From Candidatus Jorgensenbacteria bacterium GW2011_GWA1_48_11 (GTDB taxonomy: Bacteria; Patescibacteriota; Minisyncoccia; UBA6257; GWB1-50-10): DNA of 64,000 bases. The notes under the pieces are model-generated. The model was not told the DNA's origin and did not search any database. It saw only the letters and a program-made list of their open reading frames with translations. The first letter of the stretch is position 1, and each line of letters opens with the position of its first letter. Made by a program: the position numbers and the translations under genes. Below are positions 3,839-37,690 of the stretch, piece after piece. The DNA lies in the NCBI GenBank assembly GCA_001003475.1, contig LCPF01000001.1, positions 101,910 through 165,909 on the forward strand, in the 5' to 3' direction.

Positions 3839-6410
3839 CTTTAATTGTTCCCCGAATCATTTTATCAGCCAGCGCGTCGACGATTACCTTCTGGATCAAA
3901 CGCTTGATCGGCCGGGCGCCGTAATCCGGGTCAAAACCGTTCTTGGCTAAGTACTGCCGCACGCCGGCATTGATCTCAAGGTGAATCCCCCGATCCTTCA
4001 ACCTTTCGGCCACTTGTTCAAGCTGAATGCCCACGATTTTTTCGATGTCTTTTTTGGTCAAAGCGTTAAAGATTATAACCTCATCGAGCCGGTTCAAGAA
4101 TTCGGGCTTGAAAGTTTCCTTCAGGGCCTTCATTGCCTTTTCCCGAAAAATCTCCTCCTTGGTTTCGGCCTCGGACTCGCTTTTGGCGCCGAAACCCACC
4201 TCGGACATCTCGCGGAAATACTGACTGCCGATATTCGAGGTTAAAATAATGATGCAGTTTTTGAAATTCACCGCCCGCCCCTTGCTGTCGGTGAGGCGAC
4301 CGTTATCGAGCATCTGCAAAAGAATGTTGAAAACTTCGGGATGGGCCTTTTCGATCTCGTCGAAAAGAATCAGGCTGTAAGGCCGATGGCGCACGGTTTC
4401 GGTGAGCTGGCCGCCCTCGTCGTGGCCGACATAGCCGGGCGGCGAGCCGATCAAACGCGAAACCGAATGCCGTTCCATGTATTCGGACATATCGATCCGC
4501 ACCAGGGATTTTTCGTCATTAAACATGAAATTAGCCAAAGCCCGCGCCAATTCGGTCTTCCCCACGCCGGTCGGACCCAAAAATATGAACGATCCGGCGG
4601 GCCGGTCTTCGGGCGCGAGGCCCGCCCGGCTCCGGCGCAAAGCCCGGGCCACGGCCTGGATGGCTGCCGTTTGACCCACCACTCTTTCCGCCAGCTCTTC
4701 CTCAAGCCGAGCCAGCTTTTTCATTTCCGATTCGAGCATCCGTGAAACCGGGATGCCGGTCCAGCGCGCAACCACGCCGGCGATATCTTCTTCGTCAACG
4801 TATTCCCTGATGAACCTGCCTTCCAGTTTTTCATTTTTGAAATATTTCTTCTCAAACAACTTCAAGCCGCGTTCGGCTTTGGGCAATTCGCCATAAATGA
4901 TTTGAGCAACCCGTTCCAAATCTCCTTCCCGCTCGGCCACTTCGGCTGCTCGCTTGAGATCATCGATTGATTTACGCAAATTATGGATGTTCCCGACGGA
5001 GATCTTTTCGGCGTGCCATTGGGCCGAAAGGCCGTCATTTTCCTCTTTCAGGGTTTTGAGCTTTTTGTCGATTTCTTTGCGCCGCGCCAGGCTTTTCTTC
5101 GTTTTGTCTTTGGTCAAGCTGGATTTTTCTATTTCCAATTTCGTGATTTCCCGGCGCAGTTTATCGAGCTCGGTCGGCACGCTGTCCGATTGCAGTCGTC
5201 GGGCGGCCGAAGCTTCGTCAATCAAATCAACGGCCTTGTCCGGCAAAAACCGGTCCGGAATGTAACGGGCGCTCAAGTTCACGGCCGCAAGAATCGCTTC
5301 GTCGGAAATCTTTAATCCATGATGCATTTCATATTTTTCCTTTAAGCCGCGCAAAATCGCCACGCTGTCCTCAAGAGTCGGTTCTTCAACGAGAATGGGC
5401 TGGAACCGCCGTTCCAGAGCCGCATCTTTTTCAATATATTTCTGATACTCTTTTAAGGTCGTGGCGCCGATCGCGTGCAATTCGCCGCGCGAGAGAGCCG
5501 GCTTCAAAAGATTCGAGGCGTCAACCGCCCCTTCGGCCGCGCCCGCGCCCACGATCATATGGATTTCATCGATAAAAAGGATCATCCGGCCGGCCGACTG
5601 CTCGATTTCGCGCAAAAAGGCCTTAAGCCGGTCCTCGAATTCGCCCCGGAATTTCGTGCCGGCGATCAATGACCCGAGATCAAGCATGATTATCTCCCGG
5701 TCTTTCAAGGACTCGGGCACTTCGCCCGAGACGATGCGCTGAGCCAATCCCTCAACGATGGCGGTTTTCCCGACGCCCGGCTCGCCGATCAAAACCGGAT
5801 TATTCTTGGTCCGCCGGCTCAAAATTTCCATGAGTCGCCGCAATTCTTCCTCCCGGCCCACCAATGGATCCAATTTCCCGTCCTTAGCCTTGTTCGTAAG
5901 ATTGATCGCGTATTTCTCGAGAACCTGAAACTTGCTCTCCGGCGTCTCGTCCGTCACCCGCACCGAGCCCCGCAACTGAGCTAAAATTTTGATGAGTGTT
6001 TCGCGTTTCGCGCCGTAACGAGCCAGAAGTTCCTGGGCCGCCGACGGCAAATCCAAGATGGCGAGAACCAAATGCTCGCAGGAGACGAATTCGTCCTTAT
6101 GCTTCATCGCAATTTCGGCCGCCCGGTCCAGAATTCTCATAAGCTCCTGGGAAAGATACATCTGGCCGACCGAACCGCCCGTAAAAATCTTGGGCAGATG
6201 ACTCAACTGATTTTCCAGTTCCCGCTCGAGATCCGATAAATTGACGTTCGCCCGCAAAAGCATCGGCCGCACCAAAGTCTGCTCGTCGGTCAAAAGCGCG
6301 CTCAAAAGATGCAAAGCCTTCAATTCGCCTTGATTTTGACGAGCCACGAGCTCCTGGGCGTTCTGCAGAGCCTCTTGGGCCTTAATCGTAAAACGGTGGA
6401 AATTAGGCAT
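3780..6410 (-). CDS. clpB: ATP-dependent chaperone ClpB (two AAA+ modules plus a coiled-coil middle domain).
   Basis: 876 aa with Walker A motifs GEPGVGKTA and GPTGVGKTE. Walker B motifs ILFIDEIH and [11 protein letters not shown] are intact, and there is a long coiled-coil M-domain. Confidence 0.92.
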
Positions 6411-29074: not shown

Positions 29075-30148
29075 GAAGATATGAAACCAATTCTCGTTTC
29101 CGGCATCCAACCGACAGGCAAGCTCCATCTGGGCAATTATTTGGGCGCCTTGAAGAATTTTGTCGCTCTCCAAGATTCCGGAAAATACAGCTGCTTTTTT
29201 TTCATCGCCGACCTTCACGCTTTGACTGAGAATCCCGATCCAAAAAAATTAAATGAGGGTGTTTTGAATTTAACAATTGATTTTTTGACGGCTGGCATCA
29301 ATCCCAAAAAATCCATTATTTTTCTACAATCGGAAATACCAGCCCATTCAGAATTAACCTGGATTTTAAATACAATAACACCCCTCGGAGAACTAAAAAG
29401 AATGATTCAATTTAAATTTAAGGCGAGGGCTATTTGGGAATATCTAGACAAAAAACATCAAGACGAAAAAAACTACACCGGTCAAGTAAGCGATGAATTT
29501 GCTAATAAATTAGTTGAGGAAAATATAGAAGCCAACGCTAACGCTGGTCTCGTCGATTATCCCATTCTTATGGCTTCTGATATTTTGCTTTACAGCACCA
29601 AATTCGTACCCGTGGGCGAAGACCAGGACCAACATCTAGAACTGACCAGAACCCTGGCCCGCAAATTCAACAATAAATTCGGTAGAACTTTCATTGAACC
29701 ACAGGGGCTGCACACCAAAGTGCCTCGCTTGATGAGTTTGGATGATGCCACGAAAAAAATGTCCAAATCCCGGCCAGCCGGCTGTCTTTTTTTGGATGAT
29801 TCGCCTGAAATAGTCCGTAAAAAAATAAAGCGCGCCCAAACAGACTCGGGCCGGGAAATTAAATACGACCCAAAAAACAAAGCTGCCGTGAGCAACCTTA
29901 TCTCAATTTACGCCGGCTTGACCGAAAAACCAATTGGCGAAATTGAGCGTAAATTCAAAAACTCCAATTATGCCGGCTTCAAGAAAGATTTGGCCGAAGT
30001 CATTGTCAAAGCCCTAAAACCTTTCCGGGAAAACAAATTAAGCAAAAACGCGGCTGAAAAAATCCTACGCGCCGGCACCAAAAAGGCGAATGTTGTTGCC
30101 GCAGAAAAACTTCTGGAAATCAAAAAGAAAATCGGCTTAATTTTTTAG
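29075..30148 (+). CDS. trpS: Tryptophan--tRNA ligase.
   Basis: Class I aaRS with QPTGKLHLGNYLGAL (HIGH-type) and KMSKS. The track ORF begins at 28982 inside the upstream hairpin/repeat, so the start is placed at MKPILVSG (29075), preceded by a TATACT -10 and a GGAAG RBS. Confidence 0.85.
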   Translation, partial: EDMKPILVSGIQPTGKLHLGNYLGALKNFVALQDSGKYSCFFFIADLHALTENPDPKKLNEGVLNLTIDFLTAGINPKKSIIFLQSEIPAHSELTWILNTITPLGELKRMIQFKFKARAIWEYLDKKHQDEKNYTGQVSDEFANKLVEENIEANANAGLVDYPILMASDILLYSTKFVPVGEDQDQHLELTRTLARKFNNKFGRTFIEPQGLHTKVPRLMSLDDATKKMSKSRPAGCLFLDDSPEIVRKKIKRAQTDSGREIKYDPKNKAAVSNLISIYAGLTEKPIGEIERKFKNSNYAGFKKDLAEVIVKALKPFRENKLSKNAAEKILRAGTKKANVVAAEKLLEIKKKIGLIF

Positions 30149-30336
30149 AATCTGCAAAAATAAGCGCTCTGCGGCCGCATAGTGCTATGCTATAACATAG
30201 CATCTATTTTTTACTGTTTTCTTTATTGTCTTGTTATTCTGTGATGGGATTCCGCTATGACATGTTATAGCGCCCCAATTTATTCTTATAAGAAGAAAGG
30301 GCGCCATGAATTTCCATGACGCCGCGACCTAATGCA

Positions 30337-30360
30337 AAAGGCCCGCGCATGGCGCGGGCC
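30337..30360 (-). terminator. Intrinsic terminator of the GC-rich island operon (9-bp G/C stem followed by UUUUG on the minus strand).
   Basis: Minus strand reads GGGCCCGCGCCAUGCGCGGGCCUUUUGCAUU. Confidence 0.6.
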
Positions 30361-30384
30361 CGAACCAAAAACGGTTCCATACTG

Positions 30385-30522
30385 CTACTTCTGCCGGCGG
30401 CGGCCGTGACCGCGACTGTCGTCGGAGAGCTTCTCGCCCCTCATCCGCGCCCGAATCTCCTGGTCACGCAGGCGCTTGTCGCGCTTGCGGTCGGGCGCCG
30501 GCTTCGACGGCATCGGATTCAT
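30385..30522 (-). CDS. Small basic protein (45 aa) in the GC-rich island, in the same frame as the upstream ORF across a TGA.
   Basis: MNPMPSKPAPDRKRDKRLRDQEIRARMRGEKLSDDSRGHGRRRQK; GC3 about 88%. Not in the track (<60 aa). Confidence 0.35.
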   Translation of the reverse strand: MNPMPSKPAPDRKRDKRLRDQEIRARMRGEKLSDDSRGHGRRRQK

Positions 30523-30555
30523 GGCGCGGCTGATGCGACGCTCCACGCTTGCCAG

Positions 30556-30735
30556 TCAGTCCAACCGGGCCTGGAAGCAACCGACCTCACGCCGAGCGCA
30601 ACGGATATCGTTCACCGCGATGAGCTTCTGCTCGTCCGTCTTGGCCGTAGCCAGACGCTCACGGCCGATCTTCACCCGCGACTGCCAGAGCTTGAGGCTC
30701 GCCTCGAGCTCCGCCCGATTCAGCTGCTCGGCCAT
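30556..30735 (-). CDS. Small protein (59 aa) in the GC-rich island, hypothetical.
   Basis: MAEQLNRAELEASLKLWQSRVKIGRERLATAKTDEQKLIAVNDIRCARREVGCFQARLD. AGGAGG lies 5 nt upstream of the ATG and GC3 is about 90%. Not in the track (<60 aa). Confidence 0.45.
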   Translation of the reverse strand: MAEQLNRAELEASLKLWQSRVKIGRERLATAKTDEQKLIAVNDIRCARREVGCFQARLD

Positions 30736-30867
30736 ACCGCCTCCTGTCAGAAGTTATCCTGTTTGACGTTAAAGAACCATTGGGTTTCCCCGCCTAAATT
30801 TTCAAAATATTTCAAAAACTTAGGTGGGTGGGCGACCGAAGTCGCCCATGTGCTGCAAAGACAATGC

Positions 30868-31245
30868 CTAGCGATGAAACAACTCCTTGATGAGATCCGG
30901 CCACCGCGGATCACTCATGCGGTAGATCACGATCACGGGTGGGTTGTATGCCGGACACAGTTCACCGTGAGTATCAACCGTCAAGGGCCGAAACATGCCG
31001 AAAACGCAGACGTCTCCCTCTCCCGGGCGAGGGTTAAAGGTGACGACGAACAGTTTGCCGTCACTGTACCGCACCAGATCTCCTGGCGCGAGCGTGGACA
31101 GCGACTCGGCCATCGCCTGACGTTGCGCCATCTGTTCGGGCGTGAACTTCGCCTTCCCAAGAAGCATCACCGTCAGACCAATGATGGCAGCTAGCAACGA
31201 CAGGGGGACAGCGCCGTGAAAAAACACCCTCGGTCCGCTCATCAT
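30868..31245 (-). CDS. Membrane-anchored protein (N-terminal TM plus about 90-aa soluble domain) in the GC-rich island, hypothetical.
   Basis: 125 aa with GGAGGA directly upstream and GC3 about 70%. The opposite-strand 292-aa ORF (30316..31194) is judged an antisense shadow. Confidence 0.5.
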   Translation of the reverse strand: MMSGPRVFFHGAVPLSLLAAIIGLTVMLLGKAKFTPEQMAQRQAMAESLSTLAPGDLVRYSDGKLFVVTFNPRPGEGDVCVFGMFRPLTVDTHGELCPAYNPPVIVIYRMSDPRWPDLIKELFHR

Positions 31246-31406
31246 TCCTCCGCATCTTACCTAATTAAGGGGTTGATTATCTTTGCGAATTGGGCGTTTC
31301 CCAATTCATCGTGCTAATCATATTATAGCATAGAATATACCATCCTGTCAATAGGAAAAAGCCCTATTTTATAAGACTTTCTAAGCCTTCCTTTATTTTC
31401 ATCTCT

Positions 31407-34400
31407 CTACTGCGGTTTTCTAAGGCCCAGCCAAAGCGGCCAATTATCCAACTTTGTTTCCAGTTCAATGTGGAATTTCGGCGACTTCCTATACTCCACG
31501 GCTTTGGCGCCGACTTCTTTCTTGATTAAAGTTTCGTTTTTCTCCATTAAATAAACCAATTCTTTGGCCGGACTCTCAAAAATCAGAATTAGTTTATCCT
31601 TCGGTTCGAATTTCCCGTCCTGCCGCATCTGCTGGATTATTCTCACCAGGTCCCTTAGCCAGCCTTCTTCCCTAAGCTCGTGGGTAATCTCCGTATTCAG
31701 CCAAACTTCTTCTTTCAATTTCGGCTCGTGCAAAACTCGCTTCACGTTTATCTCTTCTTTCAAAACTTCCAAAAGATCGCCGCTTCCTTTCAGGACGTTT
31801 CCTTTGATCTTTATTTCCGAAAGCGGCTGACGGACTTTAATGCCGGCCTCCGCCCGCTTGGCCAAGGCGGCCGTGGCGATTTTTCGCACCTCGGCCATAT
31901 CCGCCAGTAATTTTGAATTTTGAATTTTTCCGCCCGAGGCGAATCCGCCTTTAGCGGAGAATTTTGAATTACCCTTGGACCAGTTCTCTAAATGGACCGA
32001 AAGCTTATTGTCGGTATGGAATGATTTATACAGGGCTTCGGCGAAAAACGGCGTGAAAGGCGCAATAAGCTTGCTCGTCTCCAAAAGGACGTATCCCAAG
32101 ACAGCCGAAGCGACTGCGTAATCCCTCTGGCTTTCCGGCTTCCCGCCTGCGCGGGCGGGCTGGAATCGGCGGCGCGAACGCCGGATATACCAGCGCGACA
32201 GGTCGCCCACGAATTCTTCTATTTCCCTGGCCGCCACATTCGCTTCGTATTTATCCAGTTTTTTAGTGACGCTTAGAATAATTTCATTCAGCCGAGCCAA
32301 GATCCATTTGTCCAGAACATTCATTGATTTTGGGTTCGGCAACTTGAGTTTCGAGCTCTTATCAGCGTAAGTTTTCCAAAAAACGAAGGAGTTGTACAAA
32401 AGTGCGATGAACTGGCTGCTCGCCTTCCCCAGATCGGCCTCATTGAAACGCTTGGGCTCGCCTGGCGGATTGACCGTGTAAAAATACCAGCGCACGGCAT
32501 CAGCGCCGTATTTATTGATCATCACCCACGGATCGACGACGTTGCCCTTCGACTTGGACATTTTCTGACCGTTCTTATCGAGGATGTGCCCCAAACAAAT
32601 GACGTTTTCGTACGGCGCGCCTTTGCCGAGCAATGTCGCCACGGCCAAAAGCGTGTAAAACCAACCCCGGGTCTGATCAACGGCCTCGGAAATGTAATTG
32701 GCCGGAAATTCCAGCTTGCTCTTGCCGTCAAAAGGATAATGGACCTGGGCAAAGGGCATGGCGCCGGAATCGAACCAAACATCAACCACTTCCTTTACCC
32801 GCTGCATTTCGCCGCCGCATTTATCGCAATCAAATACAAATCCGTCGATATAAGGCCGGTGCAGGTCCATCGAGCCGTTCTCGTCGCGAGGCAAGCTTCG
32901 AAAAACTACCGCTTCGCTACCGCCGGTTTCCACAAAATCGTCGCCTCTCTTTTCTTTCTCGCTGATTGCCTCACCGTCACTCCAGCCGTTCATCACCGTC
33001 GCCATCATCCAAATCGGATACTCGTGGCTAACGACGACGATCGTTTTCCCATCGTGCTTCTTTTCCATCGTTTCCAAAAATTCGTAAACCCGGCGTTTCA
33101 AATCGGTCAAATTCTCCCCTCCGGCCGGCCGCTTCATGAAAGCTTCCCAATAAGACGGATAAAATTTGTCGTATTCGCTCATCGGACGACCGTTCAACTC
33201 CCCCACGTTTATCTCGCGCAAACGCTCGTCAAAAAACAGCTTGGCGCCCGGGATTTTCGCCTTAATCGCTTCCGCTGTTTCTTTTGTACGGGTAATATCC
33301 GAAGCGTAGATAAAACCAACTCTTTTACCGGCCAATTTTTTGGCGAGTTTTTCCGCCTCAACCTTTCCCGCGAAAGTAAGATGGTTTGGAAACGGTTCTG
33401 GATAAGAACTGTCAATTTCCCTTATGTTGCTTTCGGCCTGGCCGTGACGGACTAAAATGTAATGATTTCTGCTTTTCTCCGCGGCTTTTTCCAAATCTTG
33501 GACGCCCCCGATCGCGCGACGGACGCCGCACTTATCGCAGGCCCAGATTGGCAGCGGCGTGCCCCAATACCGCTCGCGGGAAAAATTCCAGTCGTTGACA
33601 TCGCGAAGCCATTCGCCGAACCGGCCGTTCTTCACGTTCGCCGGCACCCAATTGATCTTGCTGTTATTAGTTAAAAGCTTTTTTTTCAATTTGCTCATTG
33701 CCACAAACCAGGAATCGCGGGCATAGTACAAGAGCGGCGTATCGCAGCGCCAGCAAAAAGGATAGTCGTGCTTATATAACTCGGTTTTTAATAAAAGGTT
33801 TTTGCTTCGCAGATATTTGATTGTTTTTTCTTCAGTCGCCTTGTCTTTTACGTACAGTCCGCCCAAACCGCCCGGCACCTCGGATTTAAACAAGCCCCGC
33901 TCATCCACCAGGTGATGCTCCGGCAGGCCGATCTTTTTGCCCAAATTGTAATCGTCCACGCCATACATCACGGCCGTATGGACCACCCCCGTTCCATCTT
34001 CGGTCGTCACGAAATCGGCCGAGTAAACCTTATAGGCTTTTTTGTCCTTCAAGGCTGGTATATTGAAAAGCGGTTCGTATTCGAGGCCGATCAAATCTCG
34101 AGCCTTAACAAACGATGCTCTTGCTTCAATTCCTTCGTTAGGGAAATTCGCATTTTCAAAAATACCAACATTTGCACCGTTTGCCCAAATTAACTTGTCG
34201 TTATTTTTTATGCGTCCTTCGGGGTCCGGTTTTTTAACGCTATATTCCTCAATAACATATGAAATGTTATCCCCCACCGCAAGCGCTACATTTCCTGGTA
34301 GAGTCCATGGCGTTGTAGTCCAAGCAACAATGAATGTTTGATTATCAGTCGTAAACTTTCCGATCTTCTGACTCGGCTTTAATCTAAATTTTACATAAAC

Positions 34401-35012
34401 CGAGTTTTCTTCGACTTCCTTGTAGCCCTGAGCCAGCTCATGCGAAGAAAGGGACGTGCCGCAACGCGGGCACCAAGGCACGACTTTATGCCCCTTATAA
34501 AGCAATTTCTTGTTCCAAACCCGCTTCACGATCCACCAAAGGGTTTCAATGTAGGAATTTTCGTAGGTGATGTAGGGGTTCTCGAGATCAAGCCAAAAAC
34601 CGATGCGCTCGGTTAATTTCTCCCACTCGTCCTTGTAAAGCCAGACGAGTTCTCGGCACTTTTTATTGAATGCGGCGACGCCGTACCGCTCGATGTCCTG
34701 TTTGGATTTAAACCCTAATTCCTTTTCCACCTGCACCTCGATCGGCAAACCGTGGGTATCCCAGCCAGCTTTCCGCTCGACAAAAAAACCGGTCATTGTC
34801 TTGTAGCGGGGAATAAGATCTTTGAAGGCCCGCGCCAGAACGTGATGAATCCCCGGCTTGGCATTGGCGCTGGGCGGCCCTTCATAAAAAATGAATTTTT
34901 TCTTCTTTTTGCCGACGACCAGGGACTTTTCGAAAATCTTATTTTTTTTCCAAAAATCCAGGACTTTTTCTTCGATTTCCGGCAATTTGAATTCTTTTAA
35001 TCCGTGAAGCAT
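31407..35012 (-). CDS. ileS: Isoleucine--tRNA ligase with an inserted histidine-phosphatase (PGAM-like) domain.
   Basis: HIGH region PPSANAKPGIHHVLA, KMSKSKGNVVDP, editing/CP1 region, Zn-binding Cys181/184 and Cys420/423. The 1201-aa length is explained by a roughly 230-aa insert (aa 497-728) carrying LVRHGQAESN and VVSHEYPI. Confidence 0.9.
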   Translation of the reverse strand: MLHGLKEFKLPEIEEKVLDFWKKNKIFEKSLVVGKKKKKFIFYEGPPSANAKPGIHHVLARAFKDLIPRYKTMTGFFVERKAGWDTHGLPIEVQVEKELGFKSKQDIERYGVAAFNKKCRELVWLYKDEWEKLTERIGFWLDLENPYITYENSYIETLWWIVKRVWNKKLLYKGHKVVPWCPRCGTSLSSHELAQGYKEVEENSVYVKFRLKPSQKIGKFTTDNQTFIVAWTTTPWTLPGNVALAVGDNISYVIEEYSVKKPDPEGRIKNNDKLIWANGANVGIFENANFPNEGIEARASFVKARDLIGLEYEPLFNIPALKDKKAYKVYSADFVTTEDGTGVVHTAVMYGVDDYNLGKKIGLPEHHLVDERGLFKSEVPGGLGGLYVKDKATEEKTIKYLRSKNLLLKTELYKHDYPFCWRCDTPLLYYARDSWFVAMSKLKKKLLTNNSKINWVPANVKNGRFGEWLRDVNDWNFSRERYWGTPLPIWACDKCGVRRAIGGVQDLEKAAEKSRNHYILVRHGQAESNIREIDSSYPEPFPNHLTFAGKVEAEKLAKKLAGKRVGFIYASDITRTKETAEAIKAKIPGAKLFFDERLREINVGELNGRPMSEYDKFYPSYWEAFMKRPAGGENLTDLKRRVYEFLETMEKKHDGKTIVVVSHEYPIWMMATVMNGWSDGEAISEKEKRGDDFVETGGSEAVVFRSLPRDENGSMDLHRPYIDGFVFDCDKCGGEMQRVKEVVDVWFDSGAMPFAQVHYPFDGKSKLEFPANYISEAVDQTRGWFYTLLAVATLLGKGAPYENVICLGHILDKNGQKMSKSKGNVVDPWVMINKYGADAVRWYFYTVNPPGEPKRFNEADLGKASSQFIALLYNSFVFWKTYADKSSKLKLPNPKSMNVLDKWILARLNEIILSVTKKLDKYEANVAAREIEEFVGDLSRWYIRRSRRRFQPARAGGKPESQRDYAVASAVLGYVLLETSKLIAPFTPFFAEALYKSFHTDNKLSVHLENWSKGNSKFSAKGGFASGGKIQNSKLLADMAEVRKIATAALAKRAEAGIKVRQPLSEIKIKGNVLKGSGDLLEVLKEEINVKRVLHEPKLKEEVWLNTEITHELREEGWLRDLVRIIQQMRQDGKFEPKDKLILIFESPAKELVYLMEKNETLIKKEVGAKAVEYRKSPKFHIELETKLDNWPLWLGLRKPQ

Positions 35013-37131: not shown

Positions 37132-37490
37132 GGGGATGATGGGCTTTGACAAAATCCCATCCGATAAATTGCAGGCCGAGCCGATCGTCTCGTCCCTAAG
37201 CCGACTAACGTCGGCCGGGACCCCGGCGCATAGCGCTTAGGGGTAAATCCGGTCAAAAACTTTCAACTGCCAACAGCAATGTTGCAGCGCCGGCTTTCGC
37301 TTTAGCTTAAGCCGACCATCGGACCACGATGCCTAATAGTGGGCCTCCGGTGTCATAATTAGGCCCGCCGCAACCAATGGTTCTAAATTGCGGCCAGATT
37401 CAGAACCAAAAACTGCCGCCTCAAGCGGATAAGCTTGTAGATTGTTTGTCGGATAAATTTTGGACGCGAGTTCGACTCTCGCCATCTCCA
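37132..37490 (+). ncRNA. ssrA: tmRNA (SsrA), one-piece; CCA not encoded.
   Basis: 5' GGGGAUGAUGGGCUUUGAC...UGCAGGCCGAG (conserved P2). Tag ORF GCC AAC AGC AAU GUU GCA GCG CCG GCU UUC GCU UUA GCU UAA gives ANSNVAAPAFALA*. 3' end is GGACGCGAGUUCGACUCUCGCCAUCUCCA (T-arm plus acceptor pairing with 5' GGGGAUG). Confidence 0.9.
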
Positions 37491-37690
37491 CTAGATAAAC
37501 TGTCGCTCGGAATTCTATATTGCAACGGACTTTTTTGAAGTCGGCCTTAAAAAGTTATCCCCAGTCGGCACTTTTGACTCCGGTCAAAACCAATTTAGAA
37601 TTAAATCAGATCGTCGTCAGATTAATACTCGCACCAACAGGGCTAACCCTGTCAAAAGAACATGTAGGTGTTCAAGATATGTGAAAGCAC

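Follow-up and report, generated by a model that had tools for sequence, protein, structure and literature searches.

The genome of Candidatus Jorgensenbacteria bacterium GW2011_GWA1_48_11, a groundwater member of the Parcubacteria within the candidate phyla radiation (CPR), carries a GC-rich segment of about 1.1 kb between two aminoacyl-tRNA synthetase genes, trpS and ileS, and this raises a simple question: is the segment foreign DNA and, if so, what does it encode, and on which strand? We analysed this segment, hereafter the island, within a window of 64 kb, that is, the whole stretch of DNA that was examined. An earlier reading of the same DNA (the original prediction) had proposed a self-contained, compositionally foreign cassette acquired horizontally, and our results agree with it: the island is an outlier in GC content, codon usage and tetranucleotides, and relatives lack it at the syntenic site. 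We hold it to be probable, if by no means certain, that the island is a recently acquired, self-sufficient, 'moron-like' accessory transcription unit that occupies a variable slot downstream of ileS.

The mean GC content of the window is 49.9%, very close to the 50% anticipated for the flanking genome, with a standard deviation of 0.044 among 400-nt windows. Both the top 400-nt window of the 64 kb (30340-30739, GC 0.670, z = 3.9) and the top 900-nt window (30317-31216, GC 0.604) fall inside the island. The tetranucleotide distance of its core (30296-31260) to the window average is 0.470 against 0.316 +/- 0.051, in the top 2% of windows, and the profiling that had been suggested as a check therefore identifies the island as the strongest compositional outlier of the window. 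A value of about 62% GC had been put forward for the core; its high GC is real, but the figure is 59.7%, and 65% is reached only in the 3' half. GC is in fact uneven along the core, with 65.4% at 30296-30740, 44.9% in a spacer at 30741-30867, and 58.0% at 30868-31260.

On the minus strand, downstream of ileS and in the same orientation, the island carries three small open reading frames (ORFs) of 125, 59 and 53 residues (45 for the last one if counted from a downstream ATG), which we call p125, p59 and p53. Their GC contents at the first, second and third codon positions (GC1/GC2/GC3) are 0.61/0.43/0.71 for p125 (GC3 z ~1.9), 0.67/0.43/0.83 for p59, and 0.69/0.52/0.89 for p53, so that the number of ORFs and the GC3 range of 70-90% given originally both stand. 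The accompanying claim that host third positions are A/T-rich does not: GC3 is 0.59 +/- 0.06 in 53 long host ORFs, and A is preferred only in the two-fold codons for E, K and Q, where GAA/AAA/CAA make up 64% and GAG/AAG/CAG 36% (per-gene standard deviation 0.14). In the island, 32 of the 36 E/K/Q codons end in G (binomial p = 1.5e-10), including all 24 of p59 and p53 (14/14 in p59 alone) and 8 of the 12 in p125 (p = 0.04). The signal of foreign composition is therefore strong for the p59/p53 half and suggestive for p125.

Expression signals provide a second, independent sign of foreign origin. None of 48 host genes has a GGAGG within 25 nt of its start, and a strict Shine-Dalgarno (SD) site before any in-frame start within the first 50 codons occurs in one of the 48, the same count as in the internal control region (1/48); GGAGG is also rarer than expected in the window (74 against ~127). 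A -10-type motif, TAnA[AT]T, ends 6-14 nt before the start in 15 of the 48 host genes (13 at 6-8 nt, ten at exactly 6 nt), against a background of 3%, for example at 6410(-), 8632(-), 10329(-), 13681(+), the 24270 region, the 37128 region and 52180(-), and the sequence upstream of these host boxes shows no evident TTGACA -35 box. Because the -10 boxes abut the start codons, leaderless mRNAs are suggested, and the host genes seem, for the most part, to be leaderless and independent of SD sites. Our search of the literature on leaderless or SD-less translation in CPR bacteria found nothing directly relevant. The island departs from this norm by its full -35/-10 promoter, its long leader and its canonical SD sites. 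A full TTGACA-N16-18-TATAAT occurs once in the 64 kb, at the island promoter, with 0.01 instances expected.

What occupies the same site in other genomes? The relatives available for comparison (best genome matches with 52-59% IleS identity, best metagenome match with 63% TrpS identity) include one Jorgensenbacteria metagenome-assembled genome (MAG) and other Parcubacteria-type MAGs, many of which are labelled 'Saccharibacteria' by their depositors; no close sister genome came up in genome or metagenome scans. Ten genome loci (L009-L014, L020, L029, L038, L040) share the order and orientation ileS-> <-trpS <-rnj, and ileS and trpS are adjacent in four metagenome loci (L089, L091, L095, L096), with rnj next to them where the contig is long enough. 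None of the ten genome and four metagenome loci contains the island ORFs. The stop-to-stop gap is 8-127 nt in five of the genome loci (L011, L013, L014, L038, L040) and ~6 nt in L096, so the comparison with sister genomes that had been proposed favours acquisition, for relatives that are all distant. The remaining loci hold slot fillers unrelated to the island (listed in the table below), for which we found no convincing Pfam assignment. Those in genome loci lie near the GC of their own genome, except in L029 (0.45 against 0.53), and the island, which is unique to the genome of the window, is the only GC-rich occupant among the slot fillers measured. The ileS/trpS gap is a recurrent variable slot in related Parcubacteria MAGs.

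The same observations bear on whether the island genes could instead be native and lineage-specific, either fast-evolving or born de novo, with a composition that follows from amino-acid content or local mutation bias. The slot of the relatives does hold other orphan-like hypothetical genes, but these match the GC of their own genomes. The GC excess of the island is largest at third positions (0.83-0.89), the synonymous E/K/Q choice is invariably G-ending in p59 and p53, and none of the 48 host genes examined resembles it in SD sites, long leader or full -35 box. We consider a native origin unlikely. Still, a number of points weigh against recent acquisition, and the first three also speak for a native origin. 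No donor or homologue was found anywhere, transfer being deduced from composition and signals only. The composition of p125, taken alone, goes no further than the upper end of the host range. The promoter and leader DNA is AT-rich like the host (31261-31406, 34% GC) and could be host-derived; for the same reason, the acquired segment, if the promoter belongs to it, probably reaches past the GC-rich core to ~31351. With the nearest relatives 52-63% identical in IleS/TrpS, absence of the island is a family-level statement. The anti-SD tail of the host 16S rRNA lies outside the window, so that the SD sites of the island are predicted only; its copies offer no sequence variation for testing purifying selection; and translation of the ORFs is likewise a prediction, least certain for p53. 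Finally, there is no integrase or transposase gene and no nearby tRNA gene at the island, and its flanking repeats are only short ones at chance level. A 14-nt inverted repeat that flanks the island (30185-30198 / 31320-31333, 13/14) was judged to be one of these, as we estimate that chance yields ~0.3 such pairs per 1.8 kb, with AT-rich DNA yielding more; its two arms also overlap functional elements, the trpS terminator and the -10 box of the island.

The DNA itself is genuine. Pfam matches of the two flanking genes (PF00579 and PF00133) confirm that trpS and ileS converge on the island, as had been described, across a gap of 1258 nt. We found the island sequence with the same neighbours in at least eight independent public assemblies with 0-1 single-nucleotide polymorphism (SNP), from JGI, ENA and Logan (SRR1658343, SRR1658465, SRR1658472, JGI 3300009285, SRR29904083/84, ERZ27254729, ERZ4903055); the two ENA contigs of SRR1658465 and SRR1658472 are labelled PRJNA268031, groundwater metagenome. 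The order ileS-island-trpS is seen in every public contig long enough, and over 3.5 kb the copies differ only by one SNP in each of two contigs (30358 G>C and 30428 A>C), being otherwise 100% identical. In another ENA contig, 684 nt long, p59 has a single changed residue, K32E. Identical junctions across several samples and assemblers exclude a chimeric join as far as this can be done without reads, and speak against the misassembly that had been named as a possible refutation; these data show that the island is real and fixed in one Jorgensenbacteria population. It is scarcely credible that the GC-rich stretch is an assembly chimera or, as its strongly folding segments (z = -3.8 and -3.3) might suggest, a structured non-coding RNA: Rfam gives no match at E <= 1 over 29900-31700, the structure is limited to the intercistronic and 3' regions, and the ORFs show three-base periodicity and SD sites.

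Which strand is coding? GenBank annotates on the plus strand an ORF of 292 residues (hypothetical protein UY23_C0001G0138, identical to KKU91532.1 / KKW12025.1), which had been taken for an antisense shadow, whereas three independent pipelines (JGI, ENA, Logan) call the minus ORFs. That the plus ORF is the real gene and the minus ORFs its shadows might be argued from the deposited annotation and from its uninterrupted course over 292 codons, the AT-rich spacer included. However, p125, p59 and p53 share one minus-strand frame, and the plus ORF runs antisense to all three of these GC3-rich ORFs in exact codon register, in a frame where few stops are to be expected, given the avoidance of TTA, CTA and TCA on the sense strand. 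It also has a GC1 of 0.70 above a GC3 of 0.63, the mirror of the sense pattern, a product with high Leu, Arg and His content, and neither a ribosome-binding site nor a host-type -10 box before its ATG, while it is the minus strand that bears the promoter of the island, its two SD sites and its terminator hairpins. A word-indexed search of 5.8 billion clustered proteins with p125, p59 and the 292-residue product, extended for p125 to 1.84 billion representatives, gave only self-matches, apart from five p125 matches rejected below. Since the ORFs of neither strand have homologues, conservation, which had been put forward as a test, favours neither of them, and the assignment rests on these sequence signals, from which the minus strand is very likely the coding one, and the plus ORF very improbable as a gene.

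Read on the minus strand, the island has the predicted layout of a complete transcription unit (Table 1), with a promoter and its own terminator flanking the ORFs. The promoter is a 12/12 match to the consensus and is followed by a leader of ~70 nt, which contains an inverted repeat that could act as a stem-loop or operator; the fold of the leader (-18.5 kcal/mol, z = -1.65) is on its own not significant. The spacer of 132 nt between p125 and p59 contains five in-frame stops and two predicted hairpins, one with an 8-bp G+C stem and a UUCG loop (30830-30847) and a long, A+U-rich one (30788-30828). An internal segment with hairpins and a promoter had been proposed at 30741-30830; the hairpins are there, but a consensus scan of the minus strand revealed no promoter-like site in it, and the promoter lies upstream of p125. 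SD sites had likewise been assigned to all three ORFs, and are present before p125 and p59 but not before p53, whether it starts at the GTG or at the downstream ATG. The GTG of p53 lies 10 nt after the p59 stop, the two ORFs being in one frame with a single TGA and three codons between them, an arrangement that fits either termination-reinitiation coupling or the splitting of an ancestral ~116-residue protein by a nonsense mutation. The G/C-stem terminator that had been placed at 30337-30360 was recovered within a nucleotide or two, and the 3' region that holds it in tandem with a second hairpin folds with z = -3.3. No further copies of the island or of its hairpins occur in the window.

Table 1. 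Position of the island features, the flanking genes and the occupants of the ileS/trpS slot in relatives (slot fillers are numbered on their own loci)
Feature	Position	Strand	Remarks
Predicted sigma-70-type promoter, TTGACA-18-(TG)nTATAAT	31322-31351	-	12/12 matches, upstream TG; ~75 nt before p125 start codon
Perfect 8-bp inverted repeat, GAATTGGG-N5-CCCAATTC	31287-31307	-	In 5' leader, within longer imperfect hairpin 31274-31320
Predicted SD site GGAGGA of p125	31246-31251	-	3 nt before second ATG
ORF p125 (125 aa; 124 aa from second ATG)	30868-31245	-	Membrane-anchored orphan
Predicted intercistronic RNA hairpins	30788-30847	-	-49.7 kcal/mol, fold z = -3.8
Predicted SD site AGGAGG of p59	30740-30745	-	4 nt before ATG
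ORF p59	30556-30735	-	Basic helical-hairpin orphan
ORF p53 (GTG start; 45 aa from ATG 30522)	30385-30546	-	pI 11.8
Terminator-like hairpin, GGGCCCGCGC-CAU-GCGCGGGCC then UUUUGCAUU	30339-30361	-	9 G-C pairs
Second hairpin, 10 bp, then CUUUCUUCUU	30300-30323	-	Marks left edge of GC-rich core
292-aa ORF, hypothetical protein UY23_C0001G0138	30316-31194	+	GenBank annotation; judged antisense shadow
trpS	29081-30148 (alternative start 28982)	+	PF00579, E 2e-71; flanking host gene
trpS terminator-like hairpin and T-run	30182-30212	+	Host side, outside GC-rich core
ileS	31407-35012	-	PF00133 and anticodon-binding domain; flanking host gene
Slot filler, 226/228-aa family	L009 9490-10170; L089 2771-3457		Unrelated to island
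Slot filler, 281-355-aa family	L010 9511-10374; L012 9783-10850; L020 10017-10862		Unrelated to island
Slot filler, 143-aa coiled-coil protein	L029 9544-9975		Unrelated to island
Slot filler, 109-aa membrane protein	L091 1898-2227		Unrelated to island
Slot filler, two genes	L095 5538-7363		Unrelated to island

Concerning the proteins themselves, p125 has a hydrophobic segment at residues 11-29 (Kyte-Doolittle 19-residue mean 2.29), in keeping with the transmembrane anchor that it had been given, probably followed by an amphipathic helix and then a beta-rich domain of ~70 residues; its AlphaFold (AF2) model, a low-confidence helix with a few strands, is unusable (pLDDT 46). The model of p59 is confident (pLDDT 96.3) and predicts a two-helix hairpin with helices at residues 7-29 and 34-58, for which Foldseek found in the PDB only generic hairpin or bundle matches (CopM, membrane-fusion-protein hairpins, designed bundles), none at E <= 0.001. 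The third protein, p53, is small and basic as described (pI 11.8, with 19 K+R in 53 residues) and is probably disordered. The original prediction could name no family for any of the three, nor could we: Pfam, NCBIfam, PHROGs and PADLOC scans, run on the 292-residue ORF as well as on p125, p59 and p53, returned nothing significant, and a PDB sequence search with the island proteins gave no match. Five additional HMMER matches of p125 among the 1.84 billion representatives (E 1.6e-8 to 2.5e-4) were rejected: the matched proteins are long, consist of tandem repeats and belong to families unrelated to one another (SpaA prealbumin, YadA stalk, Big_13), and their scores accumulate from weak matches to single repeats over 4-11 stretches. 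We conclude that the three island proteins are new sequence families.

Such a set of genes recalls a toxin-antitoxin, abortive-infection or phage-derived module, as had been suggested. In a novel toxin-antitoxin, abortive-infection or superinfection-exclusion cassette, the membrane protein would act as effector, with the helical and basic proteins serving to regulate it or as antidotes to it. Such a reading would suit small co-transcribed genes, one of them with a transmembrane segment, with a possible operator repeat in the leader, and the foreign, strain-specific character that accessory defence genes often have. The architecture by itself is not diagnostic, however, and the island is not beside other defence or mobile genes. 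The searches do not sustain such a module: the best PADLOC match has E = 0.095 over 12 residues, and the only PHROG holin match is not significant (E = 0.16), nor is there an endolysin-like ORF that would make for a holin/lysis cassette. DNA and tblastn searches against phages and plasmids showed no similarity, and IMG/VR scans with the island no match; a Mycobacterium-phage match at E = 0.1 was rejected as chance. A cassette of this type seems to us quite unlikely.

Comparison with known systems helps to place the island. Hendrix and co-workers reportedly described phage 'morons' as autonomous extra transcription units in lambdoid prophages. Like these, the island is small, lies between two unrelated genes, has its own predicted sigma-70 promoter and factor-independent terminator, and differs in composition from its neighbours; unlike them, it sits between aminoacyl-tRNA synthetase genes of a CPR chromosome and not in a prophage, and has no phage similarity. 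With genomic islets it shares an atypical GC content, codon usage and tetranucleotide profile, absence from the syntenic site of relatives, and residence in a variable slot, but it is only ~1.1 kb long, and no integrase, tRNA target, direct repeats or identifiable donor were found. Its proteins resemble the ORFans of CPR/Patescibacteria in being small, in one case membrane-anchored, and without homologue in ~15 billion proteins, whereas the departure of the island from its host in composition, SD sites, long leader and full -35 box sets it apart from ordinary CPR orphans. Finally, type II toxin-antitoxin and abortive-infection cassettes are also compact, with small genes in one operon and a palindrome close to the promoter, but no toxin, antitoxin or defence domain was detected in the island, and its gene sizes and order fit no defined family. 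Genuine and well delimited, the island belongs to a familiar class of features, being probably a small orphan islet gained by horizontal transfer.

If the island is such an acquired unit, how might it work? Transcription would start at the unit's own promoter, and probably ileS transcripts would also run on into it, which is plausible because no convincing terminator was found between ileS and the island promoter. The intercistronic hairpins may stabilise or partly terminate the p125 segment, so that p125 and p59/p53 would be made at different levels. From its sequence, p125 would be anchored by a single pass through the membrane, its small domain lying beyond the bilayer, and the p59 hairpin would probably pair into a four-helix bundle. 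As for p53, it would either be made by translational coupling with p59, as a basic, disordered tail protein with a possible affinity for nucleic acid, or represent the severed C-terminus of an ancestral p59-p53 fusion. The donor would be an organism or element of ~65% GC with SD-led translation. Our best guess for the cellular role is a dispensable, membrane-associated accessory function rather than a housekeeping one. A bolder version, which we think improbable, is that the module is functional and was captured recently, its source being an organism of high GC or its mobile element, perhaps the bacterium on which this presumed episymbiont lives, and that p125, p59 and p53 form a so far unseen membrane-acting system (for example for exclusion, defence or toxin-antidote action) that keeps its SD-led, leadered signals among host genes of SD-less, leaderless type. 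Were it true, the island would be a natural test of whether the CPR ribosome uses SD-led foreign mRNAs.

A specialist will not be greatly surprised by the island, because orphan small proteins are commonplace in CPR genomes. Its interest is that it offers a clean example of what is probably the recent uptake of genes by a reduced CPR genome, at a synthetase slot that varies recurrently, and that the contrast between an apparently SD-led, leadered cassette and a genome of SD-less, leaderless type could be used to study the expression of foreign genes in CPR bacteria. It also corrects the public annotation, in which GenBank calls the likely antisense shadow in place of the three minus ORFs.

The wider neighbourhood of the island is made of housekeeping genes (rnj, argS, smpB, tmRNA). 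The tmRNA gene lies at 37132-37493 (+) and encodes the tag peptide ANSNVAAPAFALA, and smpB is found a few kb from ileS on an identical public contig (L002), an ordinary housekeeping context. IleS carries an insert between the two halves of its catalytic domain, a histidine-phosphatase (phosphoglycerate-mutase-like) domain (PF00300, residues 519-678, E 1.6e-32; window 32979-33458 (-)), and the RHG motif is present in the L089 IleS orthologue, the only relative checked.

At the opposite end of the compositional range, the lowest-GC stretch of the window (12030-12929, 0.34) contains an ORF of 218 residues (12220-12876 (-), GC3 0.30) with a weak match to the DUF7411 and QueC/PP-loop ATPase families, which may be another foreign or atypical gene. 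A further low-GC segment (29195-29594, 0.35) lies inside trpS, for which the gene calls on identical public contigs give only the C-terminal 248 residues, yet the ORF is intact over its full length, HIGH-motif region included.

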